Below, in pieces: positions 1-26,402 of a stretch of DNA of 36,210 nt; the first letter of the stretch is position 1; every line of letters starts with the position of its first letter. The position numbers were made by a program, and so were the translations under genes. The stretch is from Nanobdellota archaeon (GTDB lineage Archaea; Nanobdellota; Nanobdellia; Pacearchaeales; GW2011-AR1), in NCBI GenBank assembly GCA_038045425.1, contig JBBSYD010000045.1, positions 1 to 36,210 of the forward strand, in the 5' to 3' direction. Under the pieces are notes generated by a model. The model was not told where the DNA came from, did no database searches, and saw only the letters and a program-made list of their open reading frames with translations.

Positions 1-3000
1 GGAGGAGTAACTGGCAATGTTTTGATTGAAGATGCTTATGTTTATGATGGAAAAGTTGTGGAGGGAGAGGACTTTGAGTATACTCTTGAAGAAGGGCAGA
101 GTGCAGAATTAGTTTTGGGGAGTGTTAAAGTTAATGGTGAATTGATTGACGATGCTCATATTAATGTTGAGGTGCAAGGGAGAAAAGTTATTGTTTCAAC
201 TGATTATGAGATTGTTGAGGAAGGATTTGGAGAGGATTATCTTGGAAGTTCAAAGATAAAATTAAATGTAAATTTATCTGCTTTAGGGATACTTGTTGAA
301 GGAGACAAGTTGACTTTGAAGTTGATTTATGGAAATAATACTCTTGCTAATATTCAAAAGACTTTGCTTATAGATTATTTAGAGGAAAATGTTTCGAATT
401 TAAGTTTTGTTAAATTAATACCTACGATTAGAATTGCTAAGAATGGAAATTATGAATTGAATTTAAATAATTATTTTGAAGGGGCAGAAAGATATGTTTT
501 CAGTAGTAAGAATATAAGTTTTACAGGAGATAATGGGATTTTAGTATTATCTCCGTTTGAAGATTTTACTGGAGCAGTTAAAGGAATTGTTACTGGATAT
601 TCTGGAAATAATAGTGTTGAAAGTAATGAGTTTACGATTTTAGTTTCATCAGGAGGAATTAACATTAGTACGAGTAGAGAAAAAATTAAAGTTGGAGAGC
701 CAGTTAAATGGACTAAGAAAGTTAATGTAGAGGTTTCTGAAAATGTTAGCGTTAGTATTCCTTTTGATGCAGAAAATGTAGTAGTAACTAAGTTTGGGGG
801 TTCTGAAGAAATTGTTTCAGATGTGATAAATGAAAATACTATTTTGGAGGAAAATTTGAGTAAGGGTATTACTGGAAATGTAGTTTTTGAAATAAATTCT
901 CGAAAAGAATTTTTCTTATTTGGATGGGCTAGAGAGATATTTAGAGGAGTAACTGGAAATGTTATTTCTGAAGAAAATGGGATTAATTCGGTTGAAACAA
1001 AGGAGATTTTGTTAGGGCAAGATTCTTCTGTGGAAAGTTATACTATTGAATATGAGACTTCTGCTCCAATGGCTATTGAAAGTGAAACTTCTTCTGGAAA
1101 AGAAGTAGTTATTTCTGGTCCAGATGCTCTTCATTATACTGATGTAATTGCGTCTGCTAATATTAGTAGAAATATTTCTATTGAAAATTCTGGAAGAATT
1201 AAGATTTATTGGAAGGACTATTCTTTGACTTCTGAGAAGATTAAGAAAGTTGATGAAGTTCTAGATGAGGAGGTTGTTGAAGAGGTTTCTAATTCTAATT
1301 TAGATGAGGAAGATATTGTTGAAAATTTAGTAGATAATCAAAGTGATAGTTTAGATAGTTATTCTGAAGGAATGTTAATAACTGGAAATGTTATTAGCGG
1401 TTCTGAAGAAAATTATTTAGAAGTGAATAATTCAGAGGGTATAACTTCTAATGTTAATAATTCAGAGGTTTTGGAGGTTGTTAATGGTAAAGAGTATGTT
1501 TTGAGAGAAGTTCCTTTTGATTATTATGACTTAGATGGAGATGGAAATGTGGATTATGTTGAGTGGGTTGTTCCTCATTTGAGTAATCAGACTTATCAAA
1601 TTATTTATATTACTCATGCTGAAGAGTTAGATAGTAATAGAACTTTCGTTAGAGATATATATAATGAGGTTAAGGCGAGAGATGATAATTGGACGACCAT
1701 TTCTGCTGGGAATTTTGTAAGGGTAATGTTTGAAATAAATTTGACTTCTAGTAAGGATATTACTCTTTATGCGAGGAGTAATAATTCTGGAAGAATAAAT
1801 GTTTATGAAAAAGATTCTGATGTGGAATTGGCTGATTTTGGAGTTATTGGGGAAGATGGAAAGTATAGAATTCTTTTGACGAATTTGATTGGGGAACAGG
1901 ATACTTTTGATTTGAAAGTTTTGAATGGGAGTGTAGAGTTTGATTGGATTGTTGACCCTACAACAATTCCTCAGCTTACTATCATTACTCCTCAAAACAA
2001 TCAGTATTATTCTACTTCTACTGTAACATTTAATGCAAGTTCGAATGAAAATGGTTCAGGATGGTATCTATTTGCTCCAGTCAGTACTCCTTCAGTTATT
2101 AATAATTCTCTTAAGATTTATTACGATTTCGATAGCTTTGTTGCACCAAGTAAAATTGTTGATTTAAGTCCACGAAAGAATAATGCTACAAATACAAGTT
2201 CTAAACAAACCACCTTGGGTAAATATGGGCAAGGATGGTATTTTGATGGAACGGACGATATCTATCTTTCTGGAAGTGCAGTCGGAATTAGTGGAAGTAA
2301 TTCTTGGAGTATTTCTATTTGGTTTAATTCTTCTTCTCTTGCTGGAGTTCGTCCATTATTTTATTGGGGTGTAGCAGGAACATTAGATTTAGCGATATTT
2401 GGAACTTCTGGAACTACCCCTATAGCTTGGAGTTATAGCGGGTGTGATTTAGTTGGAAATAATACTTTGACTACTGGAACTTGGTATAATATGATTGCAA
2501 CTTATAATGGGTCTAGAAAAAATCTGTATATTAATGGTGCAATTGTAGCTAATTGTACTGCAACTCTTTCTTTAGTTAGTACGGCGGTTAAAGGAGGAGA
2601 ATATACTTTATCTGGAGGATGGACAGATTATTCTGGATATCAGGATGAATTACTTATCTTTAATAGAACTCTTACTGCTTCTGAAATTGCTTCTTTGTCA
2701 TCTAGTAATCCTAAGACTTTGAGCTTTGTTAGTTCTTTAGATTCTCCAGTATATCTGATGACTTCAAACGCAACTGGGACTGGATTTAATTTCACTAATA
2801 CTTCTATTCCTGACGGAGTATATACTGTGAAATTTTTTGCTAATGATACTTATGGAAATATTAATTCAACAGTCGCAGCAATAAACTTTACTGTTGATAC
2901 TGTTGCTCCTAATGTTACCGTTGTTAATCCATTGAATCAGAATTATTCTACTTCAGTGATTAATTTCAATGTGACTACTTCGGAGAATGCTACTTGTAAT

Positions 3001-6000
3001 TATACTATTACTTCTGGGGCTACTAATTATACTATGACTGGAAATGCAACTGGAACTGGATTTGGAGCTGTTAATTCGAGTGTGCCTGATGGGCAGTATA
3101 CCGTTAGATATTATTGTGCGGATATTGCTGGGAATTTGAATTCATCTGTTACTCGAGCGTTTGGAATAGATACAGTTGCTCCTAACGTTGCAATACTTAG
3201 TCCAGCTAATCAGAATTATTCTACTTCTGTAATTAACTTTAATGTGACTACTAATGAAAATTCAACTTGTAATTATACTCTTAACGAAGGAGTTACTAAT
3301 TATACTATGACTGGAAATGCAACTGGAATAGGATTTAATGCAACTAATTCTTCAGTTCCTGTTGGACAATATACAGTCAGATATTATTGTGCAGATATTT
3401 TAGGTAATTTAAATGATGGCGCAACGAGAGAATTTGGAGTTCTTTCATCTACAATAAGTAGTTGTGGCTCTTACGGAACTTTGGGAGCGTATACTCTAAG
3501 TCAGAATATCTCAGGTACTGGAACGTGTATTACTTTAGAAGATTATAACAATATTGAAATTAATTGTCAAGGATATACTATAACTTATGGTACTTCTGCT
3601 GGAGCAACGGTGCATGGAATTTATGGTTCTTTTGCTTCAGTTAAGAATAATATTACCATTAAGAATTGTAATATCGTTAGAACAAATACCAGTACTGCAG
3701 GTTCTGGAATTTATGCTATAAGAATAAATGCTTCAACTATATTTAATAATACTATAAATGTAACTGGTAGTTCTGCAATTTCTGGAATAAATATTGGAAC
3801 TACTTCAGGTAATTTGAATATCTCTAATAATACTATTTATACTGGGGCTAGTGGAGCAGGAACTGCTGCAATTCTTACTTCTACCAGTGACGTGGCTGGA
3901 TTGTATATTGGGAGTAATCAGATTCTTTCAGGATATAATGGGGGAACTTCTGGATTTGATGGAATTTCTATTACTGCTGGATATGGTGCTGTTGTTGAAT
4001 ATAATAATATAAGTGTTTATGGCAGCGGAAGTAATAAGGGGATGTATGCTACTGGAACGTCTAATGCTAATTTTACAAGTAATACTTTGAGTATTTCTAC
4101 TTCTGCTGCTGATCATTATGGAATTGATATTGCAGGGGTTTCTGATGGAACGAGATTAGTAAATAATACTATTAGTTTAGTAGGAACTTCTACACAAAGA
4201 GGCATAAACTTAGGTTCAAATAGTATTTCTGTTATTAATAATAGTATTACGATGTTTGCTACTTCAGCACCGTATGGGATTAGTAATTTGGCTACTTATG
4301 ATAATGCATATATTTATGGAAATAATGTAACTGTAAATGGGACTAATGATGCTCATGCAATGATGATTGCAGGTTTTGTAGATAATCTCTGGATTGAAAA
4401 TAATAATTTTAAGACTAGTGGAACAACTAGGACGACTGCTACAAATGGACCAGATGTTGTTCAATTAGTTTCTTCTGCTTCTGGAGGATATATTACTAAT
4501 ATTACTTTTAAGAATAATATAATTAATCTTAGCGGAAAAGGAAGTGCTATAGAAATGGCAGGGTCGGGTGATTTTCCATATGATATTTATTTTATTAATA
4601 ATAATATTCCTCGAGGAGAATATCTTTATTTGTCAGTTCAAGATGATTATACTGGCTTGTATTTTTATGATCAGGATATTCCTGGAAATTATTCTTTTGC
4701 TGGGGCAGGTAGTACTGTGCGAGTAGAGAATACTAGTTCTGGGAGAATTTATTTTCTTAATTATTTAACTGGAACGGGAGATAATTTCAGTTCAGATATT
4801 GTTATAGGAAATAATAGTGCGTATGTTAATTCAGCTCAAACTGGGCTTAATACAAGTGCGAATGTTTCTCTTTACGGATTAAGAACTGACTTTTCTGATC
4901 CTAAGATACTTCGAAATGGAGTTCTTTGTACTACTTGTTATAACTTTACTTCTCTTAATGCTGGGAATGTTTCATTTAATGTGACTGGATGGAGTAATTA
5001 TAGTATTGGGGATATTTCAATAGTTCCTCCAGTTGTGGTATCGGTTATATTAAATTCATCTGATGGTTTGAATAGAACAAATGAGAGTTTGAGTTGTTAT
5101 ACTAATATAACTTCTAATCAAGCTACGGTTTATGCTAATTATACTTGGTATAAGAATGGAACTGTTAATTTATCTGGACAGAGTGCAGGATTTACTCAAG
5201 GAACTTTAGGTTTGGTTTCTGTGCTTGGTGCGGGGAATACTACTAAGGGAGATAATTGGACGTGCAGTGTAAAAGCTTATGATGGGGTATCTTATAGTGA
5301 TAATTGGACTAATGCTTCTTTAGTAATTTTAAATAGCCTTCCAGTTGTAACTCTTATTTCTCCTACTGATAAAAATTCAACTACAAATAGAGCTCAAGAG
5401 TTTACTTGGAGTGCGTCTGATTTGGATGGAGATAGTTTAGGATATCAGATTACTCTTAATTCATCTTCTTATATGGGTTCTCCACCTGTGGCTTGTAGTG
5501 AAAATATTTTGACTATTACTTCTTCATCTAGTTTCACTCCTTCTAGTGATTTAAGCTGTTTGTATGATAATGGATATGTTTACAATTGGAGCGTTAGAGC
5601 AAATGATAGTGAGGGTTATGGTGCTTGGAGTGGAATATGGAGTGTTAATATTACTGCAAGTCTCGCGATTAGTTTTGTTAATTCAAATGTGGCGTTTGGA
5701 GTATTATCTTTATTAGAATATAATGATACAACTAGTAATAATCCTACTCCGTTCATTATTCAGAATGATGGAAATGTTTTTGTTAATACTTCTTTGAATG
5801 GTACCTCTTTGTGGGAAAATACACCAAATCCAAGTAGATATTTCAAGTTTAAGATTGATAATAATACTTTTAGTGGACCAAATGAATTGGGAGCATTTAA
5901 TTGGGCGAATTCATTAACTAGTTGGACAAATGTTTCAACTTCATTAACTACTGCGATAACTTCTCTTAATTATTCAGATGCCAAGGATAGTGCGGAGATA

Positions 6001-6084
6001 GACATTTATGTTGAAGTGCCTTCAGGGGAATCTTCAGGAAGTAAATCATCAATTATCACATTCAATTCAATATTGGGAGAATAA
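1..6084 (+). CDS. Giant secreted surface adhesin-like protein, 5'-truncated by the window edge (>2027 aa): acidic N-region, split Ig-like domain with nested LamG domain, two more Ig-like repeats, parallel beta-helix region, C-terminal Ig-like modules
   Basis: Frame 1 is open from nt 1 (GGVTGNVLIE precedes the TTG at 22 used by the ORF track), so the true start is off-window. Stop is TAA 6082-6084. It carries a LamG_3-type pattern, 91-aa repeats, NxTIxN beta-helix rungs, a DLDGDGNVDY Ca-loop-like motif and very dense N-x-S/T sequons. Confidence 0.9.
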   Translation, partial: GGVTGNVLIEDAYVYDGKVVEGEDFEYTLEEGQSAELVLGSVKVNGELIDDAHINVEVQGRKVIVSTDYEIVEEGFGEDYLGSSKIKLNVNLSALGILVEGDKLTLKLIYGNNTLANIQKTLLIDYLEENVSNLSFVKLIPTIRIAKNGNYELNLNNYFEGAERYVFSSKNISFTGDNGILVLSPFEDFTGAVKGIVTGYSGNNSVESNEFTILVSSGGINISTSREKIKVGEPVKWTKKVNVEVSENVSVSIPFDAENVVVTKFGGSEEIVSDVINENTILEENLSKGITGNVVFEINSRKEFFLFGWAREIFRGVTGNVISEENGINSVETKEILLGQDSSVESYTIEYETSAPMAIESETSSGKEVVISGPDALHYTDVIASANISRNISIENSGRIKIYWKDYSLTSEKIKKVDEVLDEEVVEEVSNSNLDEEDIVENLVDNQSDSLDSYSEGMLITGNVISGSEENYLEVNNSEGITSNVNNSEVLEVVNGKEYVLREVPFDYYDLDGDGNVDYVEWVVPHLSNQTYQIIYITHAEELDSNRTFVRDIYNEVKARDDNWTTISAGNFVRVMFEINLTSSKDITLYARSNNSGRINVYEKDSDVELADFGVIGEDGKYRILLTNLIGEQDTFDLKVLNGSVEFDWIVDPTTIPQLTIITPQNNQYYSTSTVTFNASSNENGSGWYLFAPVSTPSVINNSLKIYYDFDSFVAPSKIVDLSPRKNNATNTSSKQTTLGKYGQGWYFDGTDDIYLSGSAVGISGSNSWSISIWFNSSSLAGVRPLFYWGVAGTLDLAIFGTSGTTPIAWSYSGCDLVGNNTLTTGTWYNMIATYNGSRKNLYINGAIVANCTATLSLVSTAVKGGEYTLSGGWTDYSGYQDELLIFNRTLTASEIASLSSSNPKTLSFVSSLDSPVYLMTSNATGTGFNFTNTSIPDGVYTVKFFANDTYGNINSTVAAINFTVDTVAPNVTVVNPLNQNYSTSVINFNVTTSENATCNYTITSGATNYTMTGNATGTGFGAVNSSVPDGQYTVRYYCADIAGNLNSSVTRAFGIDTVAPNVAILSPANQNYSTSVINFNVTTNENSTCNYTLNEGVTNYTMTGNATGIGFNATNSSVPVGQYTVRYYCADILGNLNDGATREFGVLSSTISSCGSYGTLGAYTLSQNISGTGTCITLEDYNNIEINCQGYTITYGTSAGATVHGIYGSFASVKNNITIKNCNIVRTNTSTAGSGIYAIRINASTIFNNTINVTGSSAISGINIGTTSGNLNISNNTIYTGASGAGTAAILTSTSDVAGLYIGSNQILSGYNGGTSGFDGISITAGYGAVVEYNNISVYGSGSNKGMYATGTSNANFTSNTLSISTSAADHYGIDIAGVSDGTRLVNNTISLVGTSTQRGINLGSNSISVINNSITMFATSAPYGISNLATYDNAYIYGNNVTVNGTNDAHAMMIAGFVDNLWIENNNFKTSGTTRTTATNGPDVVQLVSSASGGYITNITFKNNIINLSGKGSAIEMAGSGDFPYDIYFINNNIPRGEYLYLSVQDDYTGLYFYDQDIPGNYSFAGAGSTVRVENTSSGRIYFLNYLTGTGDNFSSDIVIGNNSAYVNSAQTGLNTSANVSLYGLRTDFSDPKILRNGVLCTTCYNFTSLNAGNVSFNVTGWSNYSIGDISIVPPVVVSVILNSSDGLNRTNESLSCYTNITSNQATVYANYTWYKNGTVNLSGQSAGFTQGTLGLVSVLGAGNTTKGDNWTCSVKAYDGVSYSDNWTNASLVILNSLPVVTLISPTDKNSTTNRAQEFTWSASDLDGDSLGYQITLNSSSYMGSPPVACSENILTITSSSSFTPSSDLSCLYDNGYVYNWSVRANDSEGYGAWSGIWSVNITASLAISFVNSNVAFGVLSLLEYNDTTSNNPTPFIIQNDGNVFVNTSLNGTSLWENTPNPSRYFKFKIDNNTFSGPNELGAFNWANSLTSWTNVSTSLTTAITSLNYSDAKDSAEIDIYVEVPSGESSGSKSSIITFNSILGE
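2110..2697 (+). other. LamG / concanavalin-A-like lectin domain (Laminin_G_3-type) inside the giant ORF
   Basis: LKIYYDFDS..DLSPRKNNATN..GKYGQGWYFDGTDDIYLSG..NSWSISIWFNSS..GTWYNMIATYNGSRKNLYINGAIVA..YQDELLIFNRTLTASEIASL follows the canonical Laminin_G_3 order of conserved positions. Confidence 0.8.
2893..3438 (+). repeat. Tandem in-frame duplication, 2 x 273 nt (91-aa Ig-like module)
   Basis: Copy 1 (2893-3165) reads VDTVAPNVTVVNPLNQNYSTSVINFNVTTSENATCNYT..QYTVRYYCADIAGNLN. Copy 2 (3166-3438) reads IDTVAPNVAILSPANQNYSTSVINFNVTTNENSTCNYT..QYTVRYYCADILGNLN. My hand count gives 70 of 91 residues identical. Confidence 0.9.
3441..4620 (+). other. Right-handed parallel beta-helix (PbH1-like) repeat region of the giant ORF
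   Basis: Rungs recur about every 22-25 aa: NITIKNCNIV, NNTINVTGSS, ISNNTIYTGASG, EYNNISVYGSG, FTSNTLSISTS, VNNTISLVGTS, INNSITMFATS, YGNNVTVNGTN, ENNNFKTSGT, FKNNIINLSGKG. Confidence 0.7.
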
Positions 6085-6579
6085 ATGGAAATAACAAAGA
6101 AACATATATATGCGATAGACTTTGCAATTATAGTTGGAACTTTGATTGTTTTATTTACTTTGGTAATTTATATGAGGCCTATGGTTATTTCTCCATTGGA
6201 TAATTTGGAAACTACAAATAATTCTATGCTTTTCTCATTTGAAAAGGGGAATATAATTTATCTTGATGATAATATTGAATTTACTTCTCCTGAAAAAATA
6301 TCCGCAGAAAATAATTTAATTATTAATTTAAAGCCGGGAGTTTATTATTGGAAAGTTGAGGGAGTTGTTAAGAGTGAAACAAGAACTCTAACAATAAAAT
6401 CGGAAATAGACTTGAGATTGAGAGAAGCGGGGGAGTTTTATGAAGTGGTTAACTCAGGAAATACTAGACTGAAGGTTGATATCTATAATAATAACACTCT
6501 TGTTGGTAATGTTATTTTAGAAAGTGATGAGAGTGCGAACGTTTCAGGGACTAAATTTGTGGGGGCTCAAGATGAATAA
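6085..6579 (+). CDS. Small membrane-anchored beta-rich protein (164 aa), function unknown
   Basis: The ATG abuts the TAA of the giant ORF, with GGGAG 5 nt upstream. It has one N-terminal TM helix (IYAIDFAIIVGTLIVLFTLVIY) followed by a ~120-aa ectodomain. Confidence 0.65.
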   Translation: MEITKKHIYAIDFAIIVGTLIVLFTLVIYMRPMVISPLDNLETTNNSMLFSFEKGNIIYLDDNIEFTSPEKISAENNLIINLKPGVYYWKVEGVVKSETRTLTIKSEIDLRLREAGEFYEVVNSGNTRLKVDIYNNNTLVGNVILESDESANVSGTKFVGAQDE

Positions 6580-7771
6580 ATTATTATTTAGTATTTTGTT
6601 TGTGTTGTTATTGGCGTCGAATGTTTATGCTTTAGGAATAACTCCTGCAAGAGCACCTGTAGATTATTCTGCTGGTTTAGAGAAGGATATTGTATTTACA
6701 GTTATAAATTCAGAACATAAGGATATGGATTTGAGTATTTCTGTGCAGGGAGAGATGAGCAGTGGAGTTATACTGGAAAAAGATAGAGTGCATGTAAGTG
6801 CAGATGATGGTGAAATTAAAGTGAATGCTAAATTTAAAGTTCCAGAGGGATTAACTCCTGGAAAACATGATGCGAATATTGTATTTTCACAAATTCCTGA
6901 AAGTCAAGGGAGCTCGGGAGGAGCGTCTGTCCAAGCAGTATTAGCAGTCACTTCACAGATTTCTCTTTATGTTCCATATCCTGGAAAATATCTAGAGGGA
7001 GAATTAAAGGTTTCTGGAACTGGAAAGGAAAAAACCTTTGTAATTAGTATGCTTAATAGAGGTAAAGATAATATCGGGAAAGTTTCTGCTTCAATTCATA
7101 TTTATGATTCTTCTGAGAAAGAAGTTAGAGTGTTAAAGACTAATGAGATTTCTTTGAATTCTCCAGGTAGTGGGGAAGTTAATGCTTTGTGGAATTCAGA
7201 TGTTCCCGAGGGTAAATATCATGCAAAGGCAGTTGTTAATTATGATGGGCAGGAAATTTTATTTGAAAGTCCATTTGAAGTTGGAGAACTTGTTTTAGAT
7301 TTACAACAAATAGTTGTTAAAGATTTTACTTTAGGAGGGATTGCTAAGTTTGATATGATTGTGATGAATAAATGGAATGAACCAATTACTCAAGCATATG
7401 CTGAGATGAGGGTGTATGATGATAACATGAAGGAGATTGTTAGTATGAAATCTTCAACTTATGATATTCCTGCAGGAATGCAAACTACTATGAATTATTA
7501 TTGGGATACTAAGGGTGTTTCTGAAGGATTATATAATTCAAATATAATTTTGTATTATTCAGGAAAGAAAACACAGCAGGATCTTAAGTTGGATGTTAAG
7601 AGTGATAGAATTGATGTAACTGGATTGGGTTATGTTATTTCTTCAGAAACTAGTTCGGGAAGCGGAGGAATGATTAATATTCTTATAATTGTTGTTGTGA
7701 TATTAGTTTTAATCAATGTTTTATGGTTTTTGGCTTGGAGAAAAAAGAAAGTTGGGCAATTGAAGAGCTAA
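6572..7771 (+). CDS. Secreted, C-terminally anchored multi-CARDB/Ig-like surface protein (module protein A1)
   Basis: I trimmed the start from 6524 to ATG 6572, which gives the signal peptide MNKLLFSILFVLLLASNVYA|LGITPA and an 8-nt overlap with the upstream stop. The protein has an SSGSGG linker, a TM helix and RKKK at the C-terminus. It is a paralog of 8702..9853, sharing PGKH, GGAS..VPYPG(K/R)YLE, G(K/N)Y..NY and G(L/R)Y..N(I/L)(I/L)LxY. Confidence 0.8.
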   Translation: MNKLLFSILFVLLLASNVYALGITPARAPVDYSAGLEKDIVFTVINSEHKDMDLSISVQGEMSSGVILEKDRVHVSADDGEIKVNAKFKVPEGLTPGKHDANIVFSQIPESQGSSGGASVQAVLAVTSQISLYVPYPGKYLEGELKVSGTGKEKTFVISMLNRGKDNIGKVSASIHIYDSSEKEVRVLKTNEISLNSPGSGEVNALWNSDVPEGKYHAKAVVNYDGQEILFESPFEVGELVLDLQQIVVKDFTLGGIAKFDMIVMNKWNEPITQAYAEMRVYDDNMKEIVSMKSSTYDIPAGMQTTMNYYWDTKGVSEGLYNSNIILYYSGKKTQQDLKLDVKSDRIDVTGLGYVISSETSSGSGGMINILIIVVVILVLINVLWFLAWRKKKVGQLKS

Positions 7772-7824
7772 TTTTACTAAAAAAATGCTTTTTTGACGGA
7801 AATATTTATAAAGGAGTTATTGTA

Positions 7825-8037
7825 ATGTATGATATGGTTAAAAAGAATGTGGCGATGATTTTACTTGTTATTGCAGTAATTTTGGTTGGAGTTTGTATTT
7901 ATACTTATTTTTATGGGGCTGAGAAGATTTCTTCTGATGACTTAGGGGCATCACAGGAAGGTAGTTCTGGTGGTGGGCAAGTTGGAATTGTTATATTACC
8001 TCCGGAGGTAGAGGATAGAGGAAATGGCAGTGGTTAA
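7825..8037 (+). CDS. 70-aa single-pass membrane protein (module protein B1)
   Basis: I trimmed the start to ATG 7825, which has AAGGAG at 7811-7816. It has a TM helix (VAMILLVIAVILVGVCIYTYFY), a GSSGGGQ segment and an acidic tail. Confidence 0.5.
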   Translation: MYDMVKKNVAMILLVIAVILVGVCIYTYFYGAEKISSDDLGASQEGSSGGGQVGIVILPPEVEDRGNGSG

Positions 8038-8659
8038 GAAAGTGAATGAGGTGTCTGAGAATGAGTGGTATAGTTATGTTGCTTATATTTCTATGGTAGT
8101 TATTGTTTTAGCAGTTATTTATTTGGGTTTGGGTTCTCAAGTTATTACTGGGAATGCTACTTTTAATACGACTCAAGGAACTGTAAATGTTAGTATTAAT
8201 AATCTAACTGCTATTAATTTTACGGCTAATAATATTAATTTTGGAGCTGGTGGAGTAACTATAGGTACTTCTACTGCTTATCTTTATTCAAATAATGGAA
8301 CTACCACGGGGGGGTCTTGGAGTTTTTCTGCGCAGAATCTTACTTTAGAAAATATAGGTAATAATAATCTTACTATGGTAAATGTATCCTTTGGAAAGAC
8401 TGCGGATACTCTCATTGGAGGAGCGGGCGCATTATATCAGTTTATGTATAATGATGCTGAGGCTGGAAGTTGTACTGGAGGTACTGTTACTGCTAATACT
8501 TGGACTAATACACTTACTACTAATCAGACGATTTGTACTCTTTTCCCTGCAACTGATACTAGCGATAGCATTTATATTAGTATTAAGTTAGGAATACCTT
8601 CTGCTTCAGCTTATACAGGTTCTTTAGGAGATGTTGTAACTGTTACAGTTATGACTTAG
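8024..8659 (+). CDS. Secreted beta-rich protein with a TasA/camelysin-like sequence pattern; candidate fibre subunit (module protein C1)
   Basis: GAGGA lies 8 nt upstream, and the start overlaps the B1 stop by 14 nt. A signal-anchor is followed by ITGNATFNTTQGTVNVSI..INFGAGG..LTLENIGNNNLTM..KLGIPS. The protein is collinear with 10265..10852. Confidence 0.7.
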   Translation: MAVVKKVNEVSENEWYSYVAYISMVVIVLAVIYLGLGSQVITGNATFNTTQGTVNVSINNLTAINFTANNINFGAGGVTIGTSTAYLYSNNGTTTGGSWSFSAQNLTLENIGNNNLTMVNVSFGKTADTLIGGAGALYQFMYNDAEAGSCTGGTVTANTWTNTLTTNQTICTLFPATDTSDSIYISIKLGIPSASAYTGSLGDVVTVTVMT

Positions 8660-8670
8660 TGAGGGGAAAA

Positions 8671-8680
8671 ACTATAAAAA
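8671..8680 (+). promoter_or_regulatory. TATA-like box for the 8702 gene (leaderless arrangement)
   Basis: ACTATAAAAA is centred about 26 nt upstream of ATG 8702, with no SD-like purine run placed correctly in between. Confidence 0.4.
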
Positions 8681-8701
8681 GGGAGTATTGGTTTTATTAG
8701 G

Positions 8702-9853
8702 ATGGTGAGATATTTTAGAATTGTTTTTTGCTCTTTGCTCTTTGCTCTTATGATTTTACCTGCGGTTTATGCCGGCTCTTTAGGTATGAGTCCTTCCAAT
8801 TTTAGGTTTGATTTTAAACCTGGACTGGAAGAAATGATTACTATTAAAGTAGGAGATTCTGATTTAAATCAACTTATTAGTATTTCTGTTTCGGGAGATT
8901 TAAGTCAATATGTAAATGTAAGTGCTACTAGTTTTGTAGGAACTGGAGAATTAAAGGTAAAATTAAAACTTCCAAAGAGTATTGATAAACCTGGAAAACA
9001 TAGGATACTTATTGGAGCTACTGAAAATTTCGTTTCTGAAGGGAAAGAAATGTTTGGAGGGGCGTCTTCAGTTTTAGTTCCTATAGATATAATTGTTCCT
9101 TATCCAGGCAGATATCTGGAAGCAGAATTTAATATATTCAATGCAAATGAAAATGAGGACATCCCTTATAATTTAATAATTAATAATCTTGGAGTACAGG
9201 ATGTAAATTTTAGTTACGAGGTTGCTATTTTTAGTAATGTTTCTACTTCTCCATTAATTAGTTTTGGGAATTTGTCTTATCTAGAGTCGACACAGGGAAT
9301 TTTAATTTCAGATTTTATAAAAAATTCTAGTTTGAAACCCGGAAATTATATGGGATTTGCTAAGATAAATTATGGGTCCGAGATTAATCTTAATAGTAGT
9401 TTTAGAATAGGAACTTTTATTATTAATATAACTGATTATGATTATCAATTTATTGCTGGAAAAATTAATCCTTTTTCTATTCATACTAGTAGTTTGTGGA
9501 ATTCTAAAATAAATGAGGTATATATGGAAGTTTCAGTTGTAGCTCCAGAGATTATTAAAGATTATTTTAAGAGTTCAAGTTATTCATTTGAACCTTTAGA
9601 GGAAAAGAATCTTACTGGTTATATAGATGCTACAAATATTAGTGTTGGAAGATATGTAGGTAATATACTTCTTAATTACGATGGAAAATCAACTAGTAAA
9701 TTAGTAGCATTTTATTTTGTTGAACCTGAAATTACTGAAGCGGAGAAATTATTACACATTGCTGAAGGGGTTATTGTTTTATTGGGTTGTGTAACTTTAT
9801 TTTTGTTGACAAAAATGTTTATTAATCGAAGAAATATGAGGAATGTTAAATGA
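8702..9853 (+). CDS. Secreted, C-terminally anchored multi-CARDB/Ig-like surface protein (module protein A2)
   Basis: It has the signal peptide MVRYFRIVFCSLLFALMILPAVYA|GSLGMSP and a C-terminal TM helix followed by NRRNMRNVK. It is a paralog of 6572..7771. Confidence 0.8.
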   Translation: MVRYFRIVFCSLLFALMILPAVYAGSLGMSPSNFRFDFKPGLEEMITIKVGDSDLNQLISISVSGDLSQYVNVSATSFVGTGELKVKLKLPKSIDKPGKHRILIGATENFVSEGKEMFGGASSVLVPIDIIVPYPGRYLEAEFNIFNANENEDIPYNLIINNLGVQDVNFSYEVAIFSNVSTSPLISFGNLSYLESTQGILISDFIKNSSLKPGNYMGFAKINYGSEINLNSSFRIGTFIINITDYDYQFIAGKINPFSIHTSSLWNSKINEVYMEVSVVAPEIIKDYFKSSSYSFEPLEEKNLTGYIDATNISVGRYVGNILLNYDGKSTSKLVAFYFVEPEITEAEKLLHIAEGVIVLLGCVTLFLLTKMFINRRNMRNVK

Positions 9854-10278
9854 AAGCTAAGAAAATTATTTTTTTTGTAGGTTTAGGTTTATTATTTGTT
9901 TTAGTGTTATTCTTCATTTTTATTAATTTTAATACTCTTCAAAAACAAGAGTATGATACTACTTTTGAAATCGGAGAAACTTCAGGTTTTGATTTGAATA
10001 CTAGTGCTTTGACTTTTGGAAGAATATCCTTTAATTCTTCTTCAACTAGGTCTATTTTAGTTAGGAATGATTTTGCTATTCCTGTTTTTGTTTCATTATA
10101 TATCTCTGGAAATATCTCTAAATTAATTTCTATTTCTGAAAATGATTTTCGACTCGTTCCAGGGGAAAATAAATCAATTGAATTTAAGGCATATTCTAAT
10201 GCAGATTTAGGGAAATATACTGGCAAGGTCACTTTAGTTGTAAAAAGATATGAGGGTTTGTTTAATGGAAAATTATGA
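9850..10278 (+). CDS. 142-aa membrane-anchored single Ig-like/beta-sandwich protein (module protein B2)
   Basis: It has an ATGA start/stop overlap with A2, and GAGGA 7 nt upstream. An N-terminal TM helix is followed by an FG..S..R.I.V.N..VPGE.K.IEF..GKYTGKVTLVV pattern typical of small beta-sandwich domains. Confidence 0.65.
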   Translation: MKAKKIIFFVGLGLLFVLVLFFIFINFNTLQKQEYDTTFEIGETSGFDLNTSALTFGRISFNSSSTRSILVRNDFAIPVFVSLYISGNISKLISISENDFRLVPGENKSIEFKAYSNADLGKYTGKVTLVVKRYEGLFNGKL

Positions 10279-10852
10279 ATATTATTTTATTATAGTTTTT
10301 TTAATGGGAATTATTTTAATGGTTTTTATTCCTTATTCTACAGTTGGAAGGGCAATAGGAACGGCAGAGGGAACATTAAATGTTACTATTGAGACTACGA
10401 CTAGTCTTAATTTTACGGTAAATCTTGTTAATTTCGGTAGTGGAAGTGTAGCTCTTGGACATAGTAATGCTACACTGGATACTTTAGGTAATGTTATTGA
10501 TGGGAATTGGACTCCTGTAACGGATGGGTTTACTTTGGAGAATATTGGTAATACTAATCTTTCAGTTTATATAAAATCTGATAGCGATGCAGATATTTTT
10601 TTGGGTGGAACGAATCCAGCATATTATTATATGATGAGTAATCTTGAGTTGAATAGTTGTTCTAATGAGTCTTTACCTTTTTCTTCTTGGACTTCAGTGA
10701 ACACTACGGGTTATGGTGATAAAGTGTGTAATGAGTTTCAACCTGTTTTAACTAATAATAGTCTTAGACTTGATTTGAAATTAGTTATTCCTTCTGATGC
10801 TTTGCTGGGAGAAAGAACTGATACGTTTACAGCTACTGGAATAAGTTCCTAA
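10265..10852 (+). CDS. Secreted beta-rich protein with a TasA/camelysin-like pattern (module protein C2), paralog of 8024..8659
   Basis: I prefer ATG 10265 (GAGGG 8 nt upstream) over ATG 10250. A TM/signal segment is followed by AIGTAEGTLNVTIETT..VNFGSGS..FTLENIGNTNLSV..KLVIPS. Confidence 0.7.
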   Translation: MENYEYYFIIVFLMGIILMVFIPYSTVGRAIGTAEGTLNVTIETTTSLNFTVNLVNFGSGSVALGHSNATLDTLGNVIDGNWTPVTDGFTLENIGNTNLSVYIKSDSDADIFLGGTNPAYYYMMSNLELNSCSNESLPFSSWTSVNTTGYGDKVCNEFQPVLTNNSLRLDLKLVIPSDALLGERTDTFTATGISS

Positions 10853-15900: not shown

Positions 15901-16763
15901 ATGGTAGTAGCCCGAATATTACATTTAGTGCGAGTGCGTCTTCTTCTGCTATTTATTCAATTAGTGCATATGAATATAATGAAAGTAACGATTCTCAGAT
16001 TATTAGAAATCTGTCAAGTAATAACTTTTCTGTTGATTTAAATGTTGAAGTGGTTTCTACTCCTTCTCCTTCTACTGGTGGGGGCGGTGGAGGAAGTTCG
16101 GATACAGTTAATACTATAAAGATTATAGTTTCTCCTCTGGAAGTTATAGAACAAGATGGATATTTTAGTATTCCTTTTCAGATAAAAAATACTGGGCAGG
16201 GGACTCTGAGCGGAATAAATCTTGATAGTCTTTTGGCTTTGAGCATACAGGGGGAAGTTAATATTAGTCTTTCTAAATTGTACATCGATTCTCTTTCTTC
16301 TGGAGAATCTGAAGAGGTAATTCTTTATATCTTTGCAGATACTAATAAATCTGGAAAATATTTAGTTACTTTATTTGCAAATGTTACTTCTCCTAAGATT
16401 TCTGATTGGGCAGATTTTTATTTAGAAATTATAGAACCTAAGCGGAAAGTTAAAGAGATAATCATATTTACGGAACAACTTATGGTAGATAATCCTGAAT
16501 GTAGAGAGTTAAATGAGTTGCTCAATGAGGCTAAGAGTTTAATGGCAAATAATGATTTTGATGCTGCTTTCAATAAGGCACAAGAAGCAATTGATGGTTG
16601 TAGGAAAATAATGGCTCTAGATAGTAAGAGGAGTCTAACTCAAAATTTGTATGGGGATTACACTTATTATTTTCTTCTTACATTTTTAGTAATGGCTATG
16701 TTCTTAATCTATATTTTATACAAAAGAGCAAGGTTTAAAAGTAAATTTCCCCATAATATATGA
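12900..16763 (+). CDS. Giant anchored surface protein with multiple cadherin-like repeats, Gly hinge, CARDB-like domain, helical stalk, TM anchor
   Basis: ATG 12900 overlaps the upstream stop by 8 nt. The signal-anchor is GFRYLGIFVFVLIFFTGIAWA. Repeat boundaries are NDVPNFT, NSVPVIT, NHPPLWI and SHNPTLT. Six Gly codons sit at 16077-16094. The C-terminal TM is YYFLLTFLVMAMFLIYILYKRARFK. Confidence 0.9.
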   Translation: MNKNKISCCNERMGFRYLGIFVFVLIFFTGIAWAIDWIGTPWTTTTQGTEDGSPSVSFNLSQYISYTAGELPLSFMFGADQNISSSLYGSKVTSFYSWITLNSSSGILTINSTNDNQTGEFNISLVTYEIGGTSVAAKVFPFLINATNDVPNFTLVSNYTMSVMSTNNTNSFNLTGSDEEQHYPLSYNISFNSCSLAAWSSRIGTSNNCNLSYLITGSSNITSVLNITDYGGNDIGTYNVTICAKENVNSVALPTYRDSSYNTNRSVCKNTTLIVERALSINVSNCSNSILNESVAFSCYVNVTTKGEIDSLLAWSNSTLRNTGAGLSNSSWFFLSNSSSSSNYSQSYYIAVTPQKTEIGNLTVNFTVRDITTGENSSSLIYIYVNRTTNSVPVITSISNVVTSVDLPTNISFNVSDNDLLIPDKALYNESANITWSILNVSDNSQVLSLSDFDILSSGTGLGVISNLTRARIEFTASSIESGNYTINLSVRDEDDALAYTLFNISILNNHPPLWINPIQTTFMVNETQNVYLNLSLNVSDEDEDILTFSYVLNNSFPSFNLNSSTGIINFTGNDSDVGQHLVNITVNDGYLSNVTEFNFTILNLNDNLTIESFSDYGFLNSTTNSNTTEDTLTNITLWIYDNDILIPSGQKAFYNESFMINVTIEGANTSLFSSFSKTSAFPDSSYPNKTEYIANFTPGKADVGNYNITINVTDASNYSSVLRFNMTVLELSHNPTLTAVSNQTASILQTFNYNFSASDVEDGNSSISGNTNFIFYINDSLSLINFNSSYFNNNTGVLSVLFNQTQAGNHLISLTVSDSDGMNASTTFGLKVYDYPNVTYPSNLTSYNATENSSTNFIFAINHTVADSLNYSFYLNSVLINASYSIANGSNITFIFTPNFTQESYGTNSNLSLFVYNSVYSELNSTGLFYFNISHANYPVVLYANISNQSSSSNLTLSLKDYFRDFDADDVNINQSIRFNYTLVNLSSGAISITQNNWVNGSSPNITFSASASSSAIYSISAYEYNESNDSQIIRNLSSNNFSVDLNVEVVSTPSPSTGGGGGGSSDTVNTIKIIVSPLEVIEQDGYFSIPFQIKNTGQGTLSGINLDSLLALSIQGEVNISLSKLYIDSLSSGESEEVILYIFADTNKSGKYLVTLFANVTSPKISDWADFYLEIIEPKRKVKEIIIFTEQLMVDNPECRELNELLNEAKSLMANNDFDAAFNKAQEAIDGCRKIMALDSKRSLTQNLYGDYTYYFLLTFLVMAMFLIYILYKRARFKSKFPHNI

Positions 16764-17755
16764 TGCGAAATAAAGAGCGTAGATATATTCCTGAAAGTGT
16801 TCTTCAAAAAACTTCAAGGGATATAGAAAAAATTGAGGAAGAGGTTTCTAAGGTTGTTATGGGTCAGAAAGATATAGTTCAACATATTATTCAGGCAATT
16901 TTATGTAATGGGCATATACTAATTGAAGGAGTACCTGGAGTTGCTAAGACTTTAATTGTTAGAGCTCTTGCGGCAGTTACCGGGTGCGATATGAAAAGAA
17001 TTCAGTTTACTGTAGATTTGTTACCTAGCGATATAATTGGAATTAATAGCTATAATCCTTCTACTAAGGTGTTTAGTTTTAAAGAAGGACCTGTTTTTAC
17101 TAATTTTCTTATAGCTGATGAAATAAATAGAAGTCCTCCAAAAACGCAGTCTGCTCTTCTTCAGGCAATGCAGGAAAAGGAAGTCTCTGTTGGAAATGAT
17201 ACTCATGACATAAAAAAACCTTTTTTAGTTATGGCAACTCAAAATCCAATTGAACAATCTGGGGTATATAATCTTCCAGAGGCAGAAGTGGATAGATTTT
17301 TATTTAAAATAAACATTGATTATCCTCAGTTTGCAGAGGAGATAAGTATTTTGGATACTAATATTACTATGCATAATTTTGATGATTATAACCTTAAGGA
17401 AGTGATTTCTCGAGTGGATATACTAAATTTGCAACAAAGGGTAAAAGAAGTTTTTAGTTCAAAGGAGATAAAAGACTATCTTGTAAAAATTGTTCATTTA
17501 ACTAGAGATAAGAATAAATCTTATTCTAAGTATATAAGTTTGGGAGCTAGTCCTAGAGGAGCAATTGCATTACATATAGCTTCAAAGGCTAAAGCTTTAA
17601 TGAGCGGAAGGGATTATGTTCTTCCGGAAGATGTAAATGCTGTTGCTAAGCCGGTTTTAAGGCATAGACTTATTTTAAATTATAAAGCTGAGGCAGAGAA
17701 GGTTACTCCAGACAAAGTCATAGAAGAGATATTAAATCATTTAAATCCAGCTTAA
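16760..17755 (+). CDS. moxR: MoxR-family AAA+ ATPase
   Basis: It has an ATGA overlap with the upstream giant gene. Motifs present are Walker A GVPGVAKT, Walker B FLIADEINR, ATQNPIEQSGVYNLPEAEVDRF and the C-terminal GASPRGAIAL lid. Confidence 0.95.
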   Translation: MMRNKERRYIPESVLQKTSRDIEKIEEEVSKVVMGQKDIVQHIIQAILCNGHILIEGVPGVAKTLIVRALAAVTGCDMKRIQFTVDLLPSDIIGINSYNPSTKVFSFKEGPVFTNFLIADEINRSPPKTQSALLQAMQEKEVSVGNDTHDIKKPFLVMATQNPIEQSGVYNLPEAEVDRFLFKINIDYPQFAEEISILDTNITMHNFDDYNLKEVISRVDILNLQQRVKEVFSSKEIKDYLVKIVHLTRDKNKSYSKYISLGASPRGAIALHIASKAKALMSGRDYVLPEDVNAVAKPVLRHRLILNYKAEAEKVTPDKVIEEILNHLNPA

Positions 17756-17756
17756 A

Positions 17757-18659
17757 ATGGGAGTTAAATTACAATTAGATTATCCAGAGGCAATTTCTGA
17801 GTTTGAGAGAATATTAAGAAAATTTAATATGAAAAAGAAAATTTATAAGTTGTTATTTAGTGGAAGAGGATTGGAATTTGAGCAATTTAGGAATTTTGAA
17901 GATTCCGATGATGCTTCAGGTATAGACTGGCCAGCTAGTTTGAGGGCAGATAAGCTTTTAATAAAACAATATGTGGAAGAGAAGGACATTAACTTTTATT
18001 TTGTTGTTGAGGTGAGTAAGAGTATGCTTTTTGGTTCTGGAAATAAACTTAAAGCAGAATATGCTGCAGATATTATTCTTTCTTTAACTGATTTAGTTTT
18101 TACTTCGCAGGATAAATCCGGACTTGTAATGTTCAATGATAAGGTTGTTAATTATGTTTCTCCAAAGAATTATAAGAAACAATTTTATTCTATGGAAGAA
18201 TTATTGTCTAACATGGAAGGTTATGGCGGGGGAACTGATTTTAAAGGAGTAATAGACTTTTTACTTCAAATTATCAAGGGAAAGAATAATATGGTAGTTT
18301 TTATATCTGATTTTTTGCATATGCCTTCTAACATAGGTGCAGATTTTGATTTATTAACTAAAAAATCTGAAGTTATTGCTATTGCTGTGAGAGATTTATT
18401 AGATTTAGAATTGCCAAAGACTAGTAATTTGCTGGTTCTTAGAGATCCTATTTATGATGAGGCGTTGGTTGTGGATACTTCTATTGTAAAAAATTCTTAT
18501 GAAGAAATTACTAGAAAACAAACGCAGGCAGTAAGAGAGGTTTTTAAAAATACAGAAATAGATTATCTTGAACTTAGAGCTGATTCTCCATTTGTTATTC
18601 CAATAATACAATTTTTACAACAGAGGGTTGGAGGGATTAATCATGGCCATCTTTTCTAA
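17757..18659 (+). CDS. DUF58-family protein (degenerate VWA-like), the usual MoxR partner
   Basis: It starts 1 nt after the moxR stop. DDASGIDWPASLRADKLLIKQYVEEKD matches the DUF58 signature (D..R.IDW.AS.R...L.V..Y.EE), and the FYFVVEVSKSM strand follows it. Confidence 0.8.
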   Translation: MGVKLQLDYPEAISEFERILRKFNMKKKIYKLLFSGRGLEFEQFRNFEDSDDASGIDWPASLRADKLLIKQYVEEKDINFYFVVEVSKSMLFGSGNKLKAEYAADIILSLTDLVFTSQDKSGLVMFNDKVVNYVSPKNYKKQFYSMEELLSNMEGYGGGTDFKGVIDFLLQIIKGKNNMVVFISDFLHMPSNIGADFDLLTKKSEVIAIAVRDLLDLELPKTSNLLVLRDPIYDEALVVDTSIVKNSYEEITRKQTQAVREVFKNTEIDYLELRADSPFVIPIIQFLQQRVGGINHGHLF

Positions 18660-19590
18660 TCTGGGAATTCAACTGATATTTGACTATCCTCAATTTATTA
18701 TAGGTTTGGTATTGATTCCTATTTTTGTTTTTATTTATTTATTTGGAATGTTTTACAAAAATAAGAGAACTATTGATTTTCCAAATTTTGAAGCACTTAG
18801 AAGAACTGGATTAACTGAAGTCCATTCTAGAAATACATTTTATCTTTATATGTTCATGGTTATTATTCTTTGTTTAGTATTATCTTTGGCAGGAACAAGA
18901 ATTAGTTTTAATTCAAATAGTGGAGATTATTCTTATGTTTTAGCAGTGGATAATTCGGATAGCATGAGAGCTAAAGATCTTGAACCTGATAGATTATCTG
19001 TTTCAAAAATTGCTGCTAAGAATTTTATAAGTAATCTTCCTATGGGGGTTAAGGTAGGAGTCATTACTTTTTCTGGAGATGTAAAAATTGTTTCTTCGCT
19101 GGACAATTATAAATTGGGACATTTAGGAAAGATAGACAGTATTGATTTTAGTGATGTTGCAGGTACTAATATTAGAGATGCTGTTCTCCTCGGGGGAGAA
19201 CTTTTGAAAAAGGAAAAAGCCAAGTCCATAATTATTATCAGTGATGGACAAATTAATTTAGGTAATTTGAGTGAGACTATAGAATATGCACAAGACAATA
19301 GTCTAGTTATTAATACTATTGCAATTGGGACGGTTTCGGGAGGAGATACAGGTTATGGATTTATTTCTAAAACTGATGAGTTGACTTTAAAATCTCTTGC
19401 TTTTAACACAAATGGGAGATTTTTTAGTGTGACTAATACTCGAGAGATGAATATTTCTTTTGATGAAATGTTAAGTAATTCTGCTGGACGTATTGAAATA
19501 AATATTTCATACTATTTATTGATGTTAACTATTATTCTCATAACTTTATATTGGGTGCTTTATAATTTTCGCTTTAGAAACTTTCCTTAA
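18643..19590 (+). CDS. Membrane-anchored von Willebrand factor A protein (BatA-like) with an intact MIDAS motif
   Basis: I trimmed the start to ATG 18643 (GGAGGG at 18630-18635), which overlaps the DUF58 stop by 17 nt. It has two N-terminal TM helices, the MIDAS motif DNSDSM, then GTNIRDA and IIIISDGQ, and a C-terminal TM helix. Confidence 0.9.
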   Translation: MAIFSNLGIQLIFDYPQFIIGLVLIPIFVFIYLFGMFYKNKRTIDFPNFEALRRTGLTEVHSRNTFYLYMFMVIILCLVLSLAGTRISFNSNSGDYSYVLAVDNSDSMRAKDLEPDRLSVSKIAAKNFISNLPMGVKVGVITFSGDVKIVSSLDNYKLGHLGKIDSIDFSDVAGTNIRDAVLLGGELLKKEKAKSIIIISDGQINLGNLSETIEYAQDNSLVINTIAIGTVSGGDTGYGFISKTDELTLKSLAFNTNGRFFSVTNTREMNISFDEMLSNSAGRIEINISYYLLMLTIILITLYWVLYNFRFRNFP

Positions 19591-26183: not shown

Positions 26184-26402
26184 ATGGAAATAGAAGCAAT
26201 GACTAGGAGATGGGGAAATTCAATTGTAGTAGTTATACCTGCAAATGTAGTTGAGAGTGGGAAGTTTAAGGAGAATGAAAAAGTGAAATTTAGGGTTGAA
26301 AAAAGTAGAAAATTGAAAGTTAAGCACGTTTTTGGATTATTAAAAGATTGGAAGAGGCCTACGGACGAAATAATTAAAGAGGCAAGAAAGGGATGGGATT
26401 AA
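26184..26402 (+). CDS. vapB: AbrB/SpoVT/MazE-fold antitoxin (VapB-like)
   Basis: It carries the looped-hinge-helix motif RRWGNSIVVVIPANVV. It is small (72 aa) and overlaps the downstream PIN gene by 10 nt. Confidence 0.8.
   Translation: MEIEAMTRRWGNSIVVVIPANVVESGKFKENEKVKFRVEKSRKLKVKHVFGLLKDWKRPTDEIIKEARKGWD

Follow-up and report, generated by a model that had tools for sequence, protein, structure and literature searches.

A conserved surface-protein locus of DPANN archaea with the four-part logic of the Gram-positive WxL/Csc cluster

The DNA analysed here (hereafter the window, meaning the whole stretch of 36,210 nucleotides) comes from a Nanobdellota archaeon, and its subject is a run of seven surface-protein genes on the + strand, called preA, A1, B1, C1, A2, B2 and C2, which follows the end of a gene for a giant adhesin. 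These genes are the middle of a conserved 10-13-gene locus in DPANN archaea, whose closest described system is the WxL/Csc cluster of Gram-positive bacteria, the archaeal C, giant, A and B1 proteins reproducing all four of its roles. The products may well form a WxL/Csc-like surface complex, assembled by beta-strand complementation and tethering the giant adhesin. Woese-, Pace- and Nanoarchaeota (DPANN) are thought to live attached to other cells, and the locus, found in hundreds of these archaea and one of the best conserved of their multi-gene surface loci, bears on how giant surface proteins stay on wall-less DPANN cells and on the mechanism of attachment.

Distribution and gene order of the locus in DPANN archaea

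The parent contig of the window is 78.9 kb long and derives from a Hainich groundwater 0.1-µm metagenome. Loci with A homologs were taken from metagenomes and from one genome per GTDB species, using a scan with the A alignment. The scan of GTDB species gave 274 stretches matching the pattern, 235 of which were confirmed by tblastn as encoding an A relative; 80 loci were kept, and their open reading frames (ORFs) were annotated by BLAST and hidden Markov models (HMMs). A protein search with A retrieved 361 homologs, and the A and C homologs with a named source belong almost all to Nano-, Woese-, Pace-, Parv- or Aenigmarchaeota. The complete archaeal gene order is also present in two loci (L015 and L030) deposited as 'bacterium' and 'Patescibacteria group bacterium' metagenome-assembled genomes, and one C homolog (P0287) is labelled Bacteroidetes and lies on a 2-kb contig; all three are probably mis-binned DPANN contigs, and not evidence of an occurrence in the Candidate Phyla Radiation.

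The order that recurs in the 80 loci is giant laminin G (LamG) protein, preA, A1, B1, C (one to four copies), A2, B2, P666, P1287, MoxR, DUF58 and vWA, and it is kept across Nano-, Woese-, Pace-, Parv- and Aenigmarchaeota. This conservation across five DPANN groups supports the proposal of the first-pass annotation that the products work together. The seven ORFs that it described are all present on the + strand at its coordinates, with overlaps of 8 nt for preA/A1, 14 nt for B1/C1, 4 nt for A2/B2 and 14 nt for B2/C2, and each product has a single transmembrane helix, with a positive-inside topology that places the bulk of the protein outside the cell. The left boundary of the cluster, previously set at preA, has to be moved upstream, since the preceding ORF (1-6084) carries a C domain and is also part of the system. 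An ortholog of the giant lies 5' of preA in nearly all loci, and preA, always directly 5' of A1, is found in 65 of the 76 loci with enough upstream DNA. Where enough downstream DNA is available, A2 is present in 43 of 58 loci, B2 in 34 of 56 and a free C gene in 42 of 58. C occurs as one to four tandem paralogs per locus, most loci having a single C gene, and the fixed pairings are B1 with C, B2 with A2 and preA with A1.

The A, B and C genes had at first been read as a triad duplicated in tandem as a unit, with B1 and B2 as divergent duplicates. By BLASTP, B1 does not align with B2 at all: the B1 family is found only upstream of C, and B2 is an immunoglobulin (Ig)-domain protein. In most loci a single C set lies between an A1-type and an A2-type ortholog, and the A1/A2 split must be ancient because each type has its own orthologs in other loci. 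A C gene 3' of B2 is found only in the window and in L019, L062 and L078 (4 of 81 loci), and C2 is a lineage-specific extra copy. As B1 and B2 are unrelated and a C gene after B2 is rare, the apparent duplication of the triad is best seen as an accident of the lineage of the window. The TATA box that had been assigned to the second set, CTATAAAA, is indeed present at 8672-8679, about 27 nt 5' of the ATG of A2, but is no more than expected by chance; AT-only octamers like it occur at 2.5% of positions in the window and, being common at 31% GC, leave it as no proof that set 2 has a promoter of its own.

A1 and A2 as probable distant homologs of bacterial WxLIP proteins

A1 (6572-7771, + strand) encodes a signal peptide, three Ig-like domains (aa 21-134, 141-237 and 242-357), a linker, a C-terminal transmembrane helix (7670-7738) and a basic tail, and A2 (8702-9853, + strand) has the same architecture, with its transmembrane helix at 9770-9823. 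The two are clear paralogs, as had been noticed from the letters of the window, with 30% identity over 344 aa (E=3e-29) and with all the motifs quoted for the pair; alignment of the A2 set with the A set by hhalign gives E=1.8e-74. The AlphaFold2 (AF2) model of A1 (predicted local distance difference test, pLDDT, 91.3) consists of a helix (residues 2-15), three beta-sandwich domains, a short linker and a second helix (365-398), in agreement with the earlier description of A as a membrane-anchored multi-Ig protein.

Of 85 A members, 46 match the Pfam family WxLIP_HBD (DUF3324, PF11797) at E<=0.1 (best 4e-8), several carrying a precomputed PF11797, and 9 match WxLIP_PGBD (DUF916, PF06030) weakly (best 0.006). 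Foldseek aligns the A1 model with the solved WxLIP structures of Enterococcus faecium (9i25_C and 9i1y_A; E from 4.5e-8 to 1.2e-7) over 260 columns, at a template modelling score (TM-score, normalised by the target) of 0.36-0.38. The WxLIP architecture, i.e., a signal peptide, tandem Ig-like domains and a single C-terminal transmembrane helix, is found in A with one extra Ig domain, and the family consensus after the signal peptide, 'LGITPGRTTxDF', is not a WxLIP motif. A1 and A2 are membrane-anchored three-Ig stalks and, by the matches across their family and by fold, appear to be distant homologs of bacterial WxLIP. The label 'CARDB-like' previously given to them reflects a generic Ig resemblance, seen in 5 of 85 members, whereas the specific signal is that of WxLIP_HBD in 46 of 85. 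Membership of A in the CARDB, MG2 or S-layer families was considered and rejected, the matches being scattered and weak (A1 scores 17.6 bits with the S-layer model NF033506, whose cut-off is 110).

Further along the window, two adjacent ORFs of 548 aa (21164-22810) and 401 aa (22817-24022) encode proteins with an N-terminal signal or transmembrane helix and a further transmembrane helix nearer the C-terminus. HMMs link them weakly to the Ig domains of A and B2 (E from 1e-3 to 7e-6), Pfam has no family for them, and they may be further diverged relatives of the A family.

The C module occurs free and at the C-terminus of the giant adhesin

C1 (8024-8659, + strand) encodes a transmembrane or signal helix (8069-8134) followed by a beta-sandwich, with a conserved 'ITG' (8141-8152) and an N-terminal strand, 'GTVNVSIN' (8177-8200), between them. 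C2 (10265-10852, + strand) is a second free C module, with the strand 'GTLNVTIE' at 10370-10393 and without a B1 of its own. The two are collinear paralogs, as first stated (32% identity, E=6e-29), free C being 195-211 aa long; an exhaustive HMM search puts their uncharacterised family at 1490 clusters at 50% identity. In the AF2 model of C1 (pLDDT 91.8) a transmembrane or signal helix (residues 12-37) is followed by an unpaired stretch (38-63), which carries the conserved motif T-G-T-[AV]-N-L-T-V-E-S, and by a nine-strand sandwich from residue 64. Two cysteines (C150 and C171 in C1) are invariant across the family. The reading of C as a small beta-sandwich module is supported by the model, and its best fold matches, although weak, are to strand-exchange pilins: the top Foldseek match of C1 is CsuA/B (7zl4; E=0.01, probability 0.99, TM-score 0.47), followed by FimG, CsuE, the TasA fibre and the Saci_0406 thread of Sulfolobus (E 0.01-0.06 for these five), and by FimA and PapA/E. 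No known sequence was matched by C1 as a single sequence searched against the PDB, by a 62-sequence profile against the PDB, or in Pfam, and NCBIfam gave nothing useful.

Positions 4-6 of the C strand (8177-8200 in C1, 10370-10393 in C2) form an N-x-[ST] glycosylation sequon, the Asn being present in 43 of 46 loci; the B1 strand described below has G or S at the matching position. The Asn of C, if glycosylated, would mark the solvent face of the strand.

The same module ends the giant adhesin. The window holds the 3' part of its gene (6.1 kb; 1-6084, + strand), open from base 1 and with the N-terminus of the protein outside the window, and the complete ORF on the parent contig encodes 2324 aa. 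It has Pfam Laminin_G_3 and Big_13 domains, a beta-helix-like region that was read from the sequence, and no C-terminal transmembrane helix. The C-like domain at its C-terminus lies at 5641-6084; positions 90-198 of the C-family HMM match residues 1904-2014 of the giant (E=5e-10), and a C domain forms the last ~110-150 residues of the giant in 59 of 59 tails from other loci. C is a beta-sandwich module of ~165 aa that is met both as a free protein, in C1 and C2, and as the last domain of the giant.

At the other end of the giant, a conserved basic motif is followed by a transmembrane helix and by 'FTG-NASLDL', a pattern also present in other loci. The motif, of ~35 aa, reads (M)V[HY]KKYTYK[DN]GK[RS][FY]GPY[YL]Y...R[VI].G[KN].[IV]T.Y[LE]G and was seen at L085:3026-3250 (on the parent contig, just 5' of the window) and in L018, L020, L021, L027, L042, L069 and L070. 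This stretch, which matches nothing in Pfam, lies on the cytoplasmic side of the transmembrane helix and could extend the signal-peptide region of very large exports or act as a cytoplasmic docking motif.

B1 is a tethered peptide whose strand covaries with that of C

B1 (7825-8037, + strand) encodes a protein of 70 aa in which a Gly/Ser linker joins an N-terminal transmembrane helix (7849-7914) to a beta-strand at the C-terminus ('GQVGIVIL', 7975-7998). In 48 of 60 cases an ortholog of 58-87 aa directly precedes the first C gene. The B1 HMM gives 60 matches, of which 54 lie immediately 5' of a free C, and it matches nothing in the 16 loci without one. The helix is oriented N-in, and the strand follows the pattern G-x-[VI]-x-L-x-[VI]-E, in a register that it shares with the N-terminal strand of C.

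Cognate B1 and C strands resemble each other more than shuffled pairs do (mean BLOSUM score 14.28 vs 11.34±0.52), and none of 5000 shuffles reaches the observed value. The clearest signal comes from strand position 8, where B1 has Glu in 19 of 19 loci whose C has Glu and in 2 of 24 otherwise (Fisher p=2.6e-10), and where L/L, Q/Q and N/N pairs are also seen; positions 5 and 7 covary as well (p=0.004 each). On the A1 tree, at least 9 independent switches between E and non-E can be counted, almost always made by B1 and C together. A position-specific scoring matrix derived from the strand of C recovers the B1 motif when the scores are taken together (z=8.4), individual scores being weak. As the strands of two different proteins keep the same residues, the best explanation is that both serve the same binding site. 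The idea of B as an adaptor finds support in the case of B1, which is found only with C and whose strand covaries with the C strand. By these sequence comparisons, B1 is a membrane-tethered peptide of ~65 aa, with an extracellular C-terminal strand that co-evolves, residue by identical residue, with the N-terminal strand of C.

B2 and preA

B2 (9850-10278, + strand), always directly 3' of A2, encodes an N-terminal transmembrane helix (9865-9930) and one Ig domain of the ASH/PapD clan. This domain aligns with domain 1 of A in hhalign (probability 95.9%, E=5e-9), the Pfam ASH family is matched by 10 of 21 B2 members, and the B2 profile matches the ASH domains of FAP65/hydin in the PDB. B2 is a membrane-tethered copy of the first domain of A.

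The remaining member, preA (6085-6579, + strand), encodes an N-terminal transmembrane helix (6106-6171) and a beta-rich ectodomain of ~125 aa, for which no Pfam family was found. The possibility that this is a B2-like, A-like or C-like domain was rejected, since alignment shows it to be unrelated to them. Its only PDB match is a marginal one to the cannula protein CanX (E=0.024); both this and a match to DUF3992 (E=0.045) were too weak to be used as evidence of kinship.

Comparison with described systems

The first-pass annotation did not recognise a described system in these genes. This stands for Archaea, as the literature on DPANN together with donor strands, or with laminin G and surface proteins, yielded no description of the locus, but the WxL/Csc cluster of Gram-positive bacteria has the same four-part logic. 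WxL/Csc clusters occur in Lactobacillales and Bacillales, more than 91% of WxL proteins being reported from Firmicutes, and comprise a small WxL protein (CscB), a large WxL protein (CscC), a WxLIP protein with DUF916 and DUF3324 (CscA) and a small LPxTG protein (CscD). WxLIP is predicted to insert a strand into WxL (PMC10599100, PMC9772566). In the archaeal locus, A1 and A2 have the succession of signal peptide, Ig domains and C-terminal transmembrane helix of WxLIP (PMC10599100) and their family has Pfam-level matches to WxLIP_HBD in 46 of 85 members; C is a secreted one-domain protein of ~170-180 aa, as is the small WxL protein; the giant is a large adhesin with a beta-helix-like/Ig region and a shorter copy of the partner domain at its C-terminus; and B1, small and separately anchored, takes the role of the small LPxTG protein. 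There are also differences. The archaea that carry the locus have no peptidoglycan; the partner domain C has no WxL motif and no similarity to WxL in sequence or among its top 50 fold matches, Pfam WxL (PF13731) being found in none of C1, C2, the giant tail, the scanned C members and the other scanned genes of the locus; A has a third Ig domain and no NQIDKxxxYFDLK motif; B1 is anchored by an N-terminal transmembrane helix and not by LPxTG; and preA, B2, two large anchored proteins and MoxR/DUF58/vWA are extra conserved members.

A second parallel is offered by TasA-TapA and AbpA-AbpB, in which a beta-rich, Sec-exported N-strand donor of ~200 aa is encoded beside an accessory protein of ~400 aa with several beta domains. 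The N-terminus of TapA resembles the donor strand of TasA and has been proposed to complement TasA (PMC9674648), and B1 appears to carry a comparable copy of the C strand; in the archaeal case, however, the mimic sits on a separate membrane peptide of 65 aa and not on the large accessory protein, and A, unlike TapA, resembles WxLIP and is anchored in the membrane by its C-terminus. No gene for a SipW-type peptidase was noticed among those annotated in the locus. Homology of C to TasA, suggested by its first description as 'TasA-like', was rejected: C has no match to Peptidase_M73 (PF12389, TasA/camelysin) in Pfam, and a 118-sequence C profile aligned with Bacillus subtilis TasA gives an hhalign probability of 0.5%, the sole aligned stretch being the signal peptide and 'SGTLDLSA'. 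The TasA fibre (8aur_A) is among the top fold matches of C1, and the match is weak (Foldseek E=0.055, probability 0.90, TM-score 0.36/0.34). With the bundling pili of Pyrobaculum (AbpA/AbpB; PMC9245690) the likeness is in gene sizes and pairing only, and 7UEG is absent from the top 50 fold matches of C1.

Chaperone-usher pili (Csu, type 1 and P) provide the best fold matches of C1, which are below conventional significance, and share with the locus a two-part tip adhesin that, like FimH, has a pilin-type domain as its C-terminal part, a pair of conserved cysteines in the subunit, and Ig domains of the PapD clan, here in B2 and in domain 1 of A. They differ in that the archaea have no outer membrane, that Pfam or NCBIfam scans of the ORFs from the giant through vWA and of several ORFs downstream found neither an usher nor a two-domain periplasmic chaperone of the PapD family, and that no sequence relationship was detected.

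A putative strand-complemented tether for a giant adhesin

In the scheme that may well apply, C and the giant would be exported by the Sec pathway and cleaved after a shared '[ILF]-T-G' motif. The C domain would be an incomplete sandwich, completed in trans by a donated strand, of which B1 would supply a membrane-anchored copy in the manner proposed for the N-terminus of TapA and TasA, and the WxLIP-like A proteins together with B2 would hold C domains at the membrane, as predicted for WxLIP and WxL domains. The giant and one or a few C modules would in this way be tethered non-covalently to a wall-less cell, presumably for attachment to host cells or surfaces. The scheme names an anchor, a module and a key strand, and makes a prediction at the level of single residues, strand position 8 switching jointly in B1 and C. 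It further suggests that the WxLIP scaffold has archaeal relatives with a different partner domain, which could help to explain how WxL/Csc complexes assemble.

Several observations weigh against this scheme. Where A is concerned, A1 scores 15.6 bits with WxLIP_HBD, below the Pfam cut-off of 28.9, and A2 has no match; the motif of the WxLIP PGBD domain, NQIDKxxxYFDLK, is absent from A; the Foldseek list of A1 is dominated by generic multi-Ig proteins with E values equal to or better than those of WxLIP; and no WxLIP chain was matched by the A profile among PDB sequences. Where C is concerned, Pfam WxL matches none of 62 members at E<=0.1 and none of 10 at E<=10, the consensus contains 'INWGSG' and 'GNWT' and no Trp-x-Leu pair, the WxL chain of 9i25 is missing from the top 50 fold matches of C1, and these matches all have E>=0.01 and TM-score<=0.47, none reaching E<0.001. 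With neither a WxL motif nor a Pfam or top-50 fold match, the parallel between C and WxL is architectural and not one of homology. The C domain of the giant (core from ~5731) retains a strand-A equivalent in cis, 'SVNITASLAISF' (5641-5676), and could for this reason be self-complemented, and the conserved N-terminal transmembrane helix of the giants, if not cleaved, would anchor them unaided. A search for an acceptor residue among the columns of C, A1, A2, B2, preA and the giant tail gave none that survives multiple testing, the best candidate being the K/R of 'WGSG[KR]V' (p=1e-4, not significant after correction). Because 16 of 58 loci have neither, free C and B1 look accessory to a core of giant, preA and A. 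Finally, contacts between any two products, cleavage of the signal peptide after 'TG' and polymerisation are steps that we infer.

The last of these steps is central to the main alternative, a possible but less likely arrangement in which C polymerises head-to-tail by inserting its N-terminal strand into the next subunit of a pilus. The giant would sit at the tip through its C-like domain, B1 would plug the groove of the basal subunit and anchor or prime the fibre, and A1, A2 and B2 would serve as an assembly platform or chaperone, following a chaperone-usher-like or TasA/TapA-like logic without an usher. Such a chaperone-free and usher-free donor-strand fibre, with B1 as base, C as shaft, an adhesin of 2000-3000 aa as tip and A1/A2/B2 as platform, is tentatively suggested by the top fold matches of C1 (CsuA/B at E=0.01, FimG, CsuE, the TasA fibre, Saci_0406, FimA and PapA/E), by an N-terminal strand that is conserved in C and yet unpaired in the model, and by a B1 strand that mimics and covaries with it. 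Also in its favour are the one to four tandem C paralogs per locus, reminiscent of major and minor pilins, the Ig domains of the ASH/PapD-like clan in B2 and in domain 1 of A, and a tip adhesin with a pilin domain, the polarity being self-consistent in that the body of the giant lies N-terminal of its C domain and B1 can only donate. However, not one of the fold matches is strong, and the searches revealed no homology of C to a pilin family; free C is a single gene in most loci and is absent from a quarter of them, which nevertheless keep the giant, preA and A; the giant tail keeps its strand A in cis; and no report of filaments in these uncultured lineages was found. If true, the fibre would be a previously unknown class of archaeal pilus, likely the host-attachment organelle of Woese-, Pace- and Nanoarchaeota, and strand-exchange assembly would gain a link with the WxL/Csc system of Firmicutes, whose mechanism is poorly understood.

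It is unlikely that the genes encode independent envelope proteins (S-layer-like or glycocalyx) that are merely co-located, the similarity of the B1 and C strands then reflecting a shared sorting or processing signal or gene conversion. For this reading it can be said that the products are without exception beta-rich, Asn/Thr-rich surface proteins of a generic kind, that A1 faintly matches an S-layer model (NF033506, 17.6 bits against a cut-off of 110), that further A/B2-like Ig proteins are encoded elsewhere in the window, and that the motif of 'TG' plus strand is also present at the N-termini of giants, which is compatible with a shared processing signal. Against this, a strict gene order and translational coupling are kept across phylum-level divergence, B1 is found only where C is present, and the giant, which has no C-terminal anchor, always has a C domain; a shared sorting signal or simple gene conversion is moreover improbable because the covarying strand is C-terminal in B1 and near the N-terminus in C.

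The original proposal, an anchor A, a membrane adaptor B and a polymerising TasA-like C in a module duplicated in tandem, accounts for A1/A2 and C1/C2 being paralogs in matching order and for the overlap of B with C in both sets, but is very improbable given that B1 and B2 are of different families with different fixed partners, that most loci hold A1-type and A2-type genes around a single C set, that C follows B2 in only 4 of 81 loci and that the homology to TasA is unsupported.

Downstream members of the locus and other genes of the window

Two large proteins of 666 aa (P666) and 1287 aa (P1287) are encoded directly after C2 (10907-16763, + strand), with transmembrane helices at both ends and cadherin-like/Ig repeats. 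Orthologs of P666 follow B2 in 29 loci and those of P1287 do so in 20, and weak matches to Cadherin_4 and tandem-95 were obtained. P666 has a Cys-rich C-terminal region ahead of its transmembrane helix. Runs of 6-11 consecutive glycines (e.g., SSGGGGGGGGGGAS) are encoded at 12246-12290 in P666, at ~15900 in P1287 and at ~21720 in the 548-aa protein mentioned above, in each of these three large surface proteins between repeat-rich ectodomains and C-terminal modules.

The next genes (16760-19590, + strand) encode a MoxR AAA+ ATPase, a DUF58 protein and a BatA-type vWA membrane protein, identified by Pfam (AAA_3, 6e-60; DUF58, 7e-36; VWA_2/BatA). They adjoin the locus in at least 13 related loci, sometimes inverted, which suggests a chaperone-type MoxR/vWA module linked to the surface genes.

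Immediately after the two A-like proteins, an ORF at 24063-26117 encodes an extremely Lys/Glu-rich protein of 684 aa, predicted to be a coiled coil and without a Pfam match, and a gene for a family B DNA polymerase is present in the window as well. A gene for a PIN-domain protein (26393-26764) and two consecutive nucleotidyltransferase gene pairs (27665-28824 and 29142-30309) lie downstream of the surface genes; in each pair the nucleotidyltransferase is followed by a second ORF, confirmed as HEPN for the second pair only. These genes look like toxin-antitoxin-type modules.

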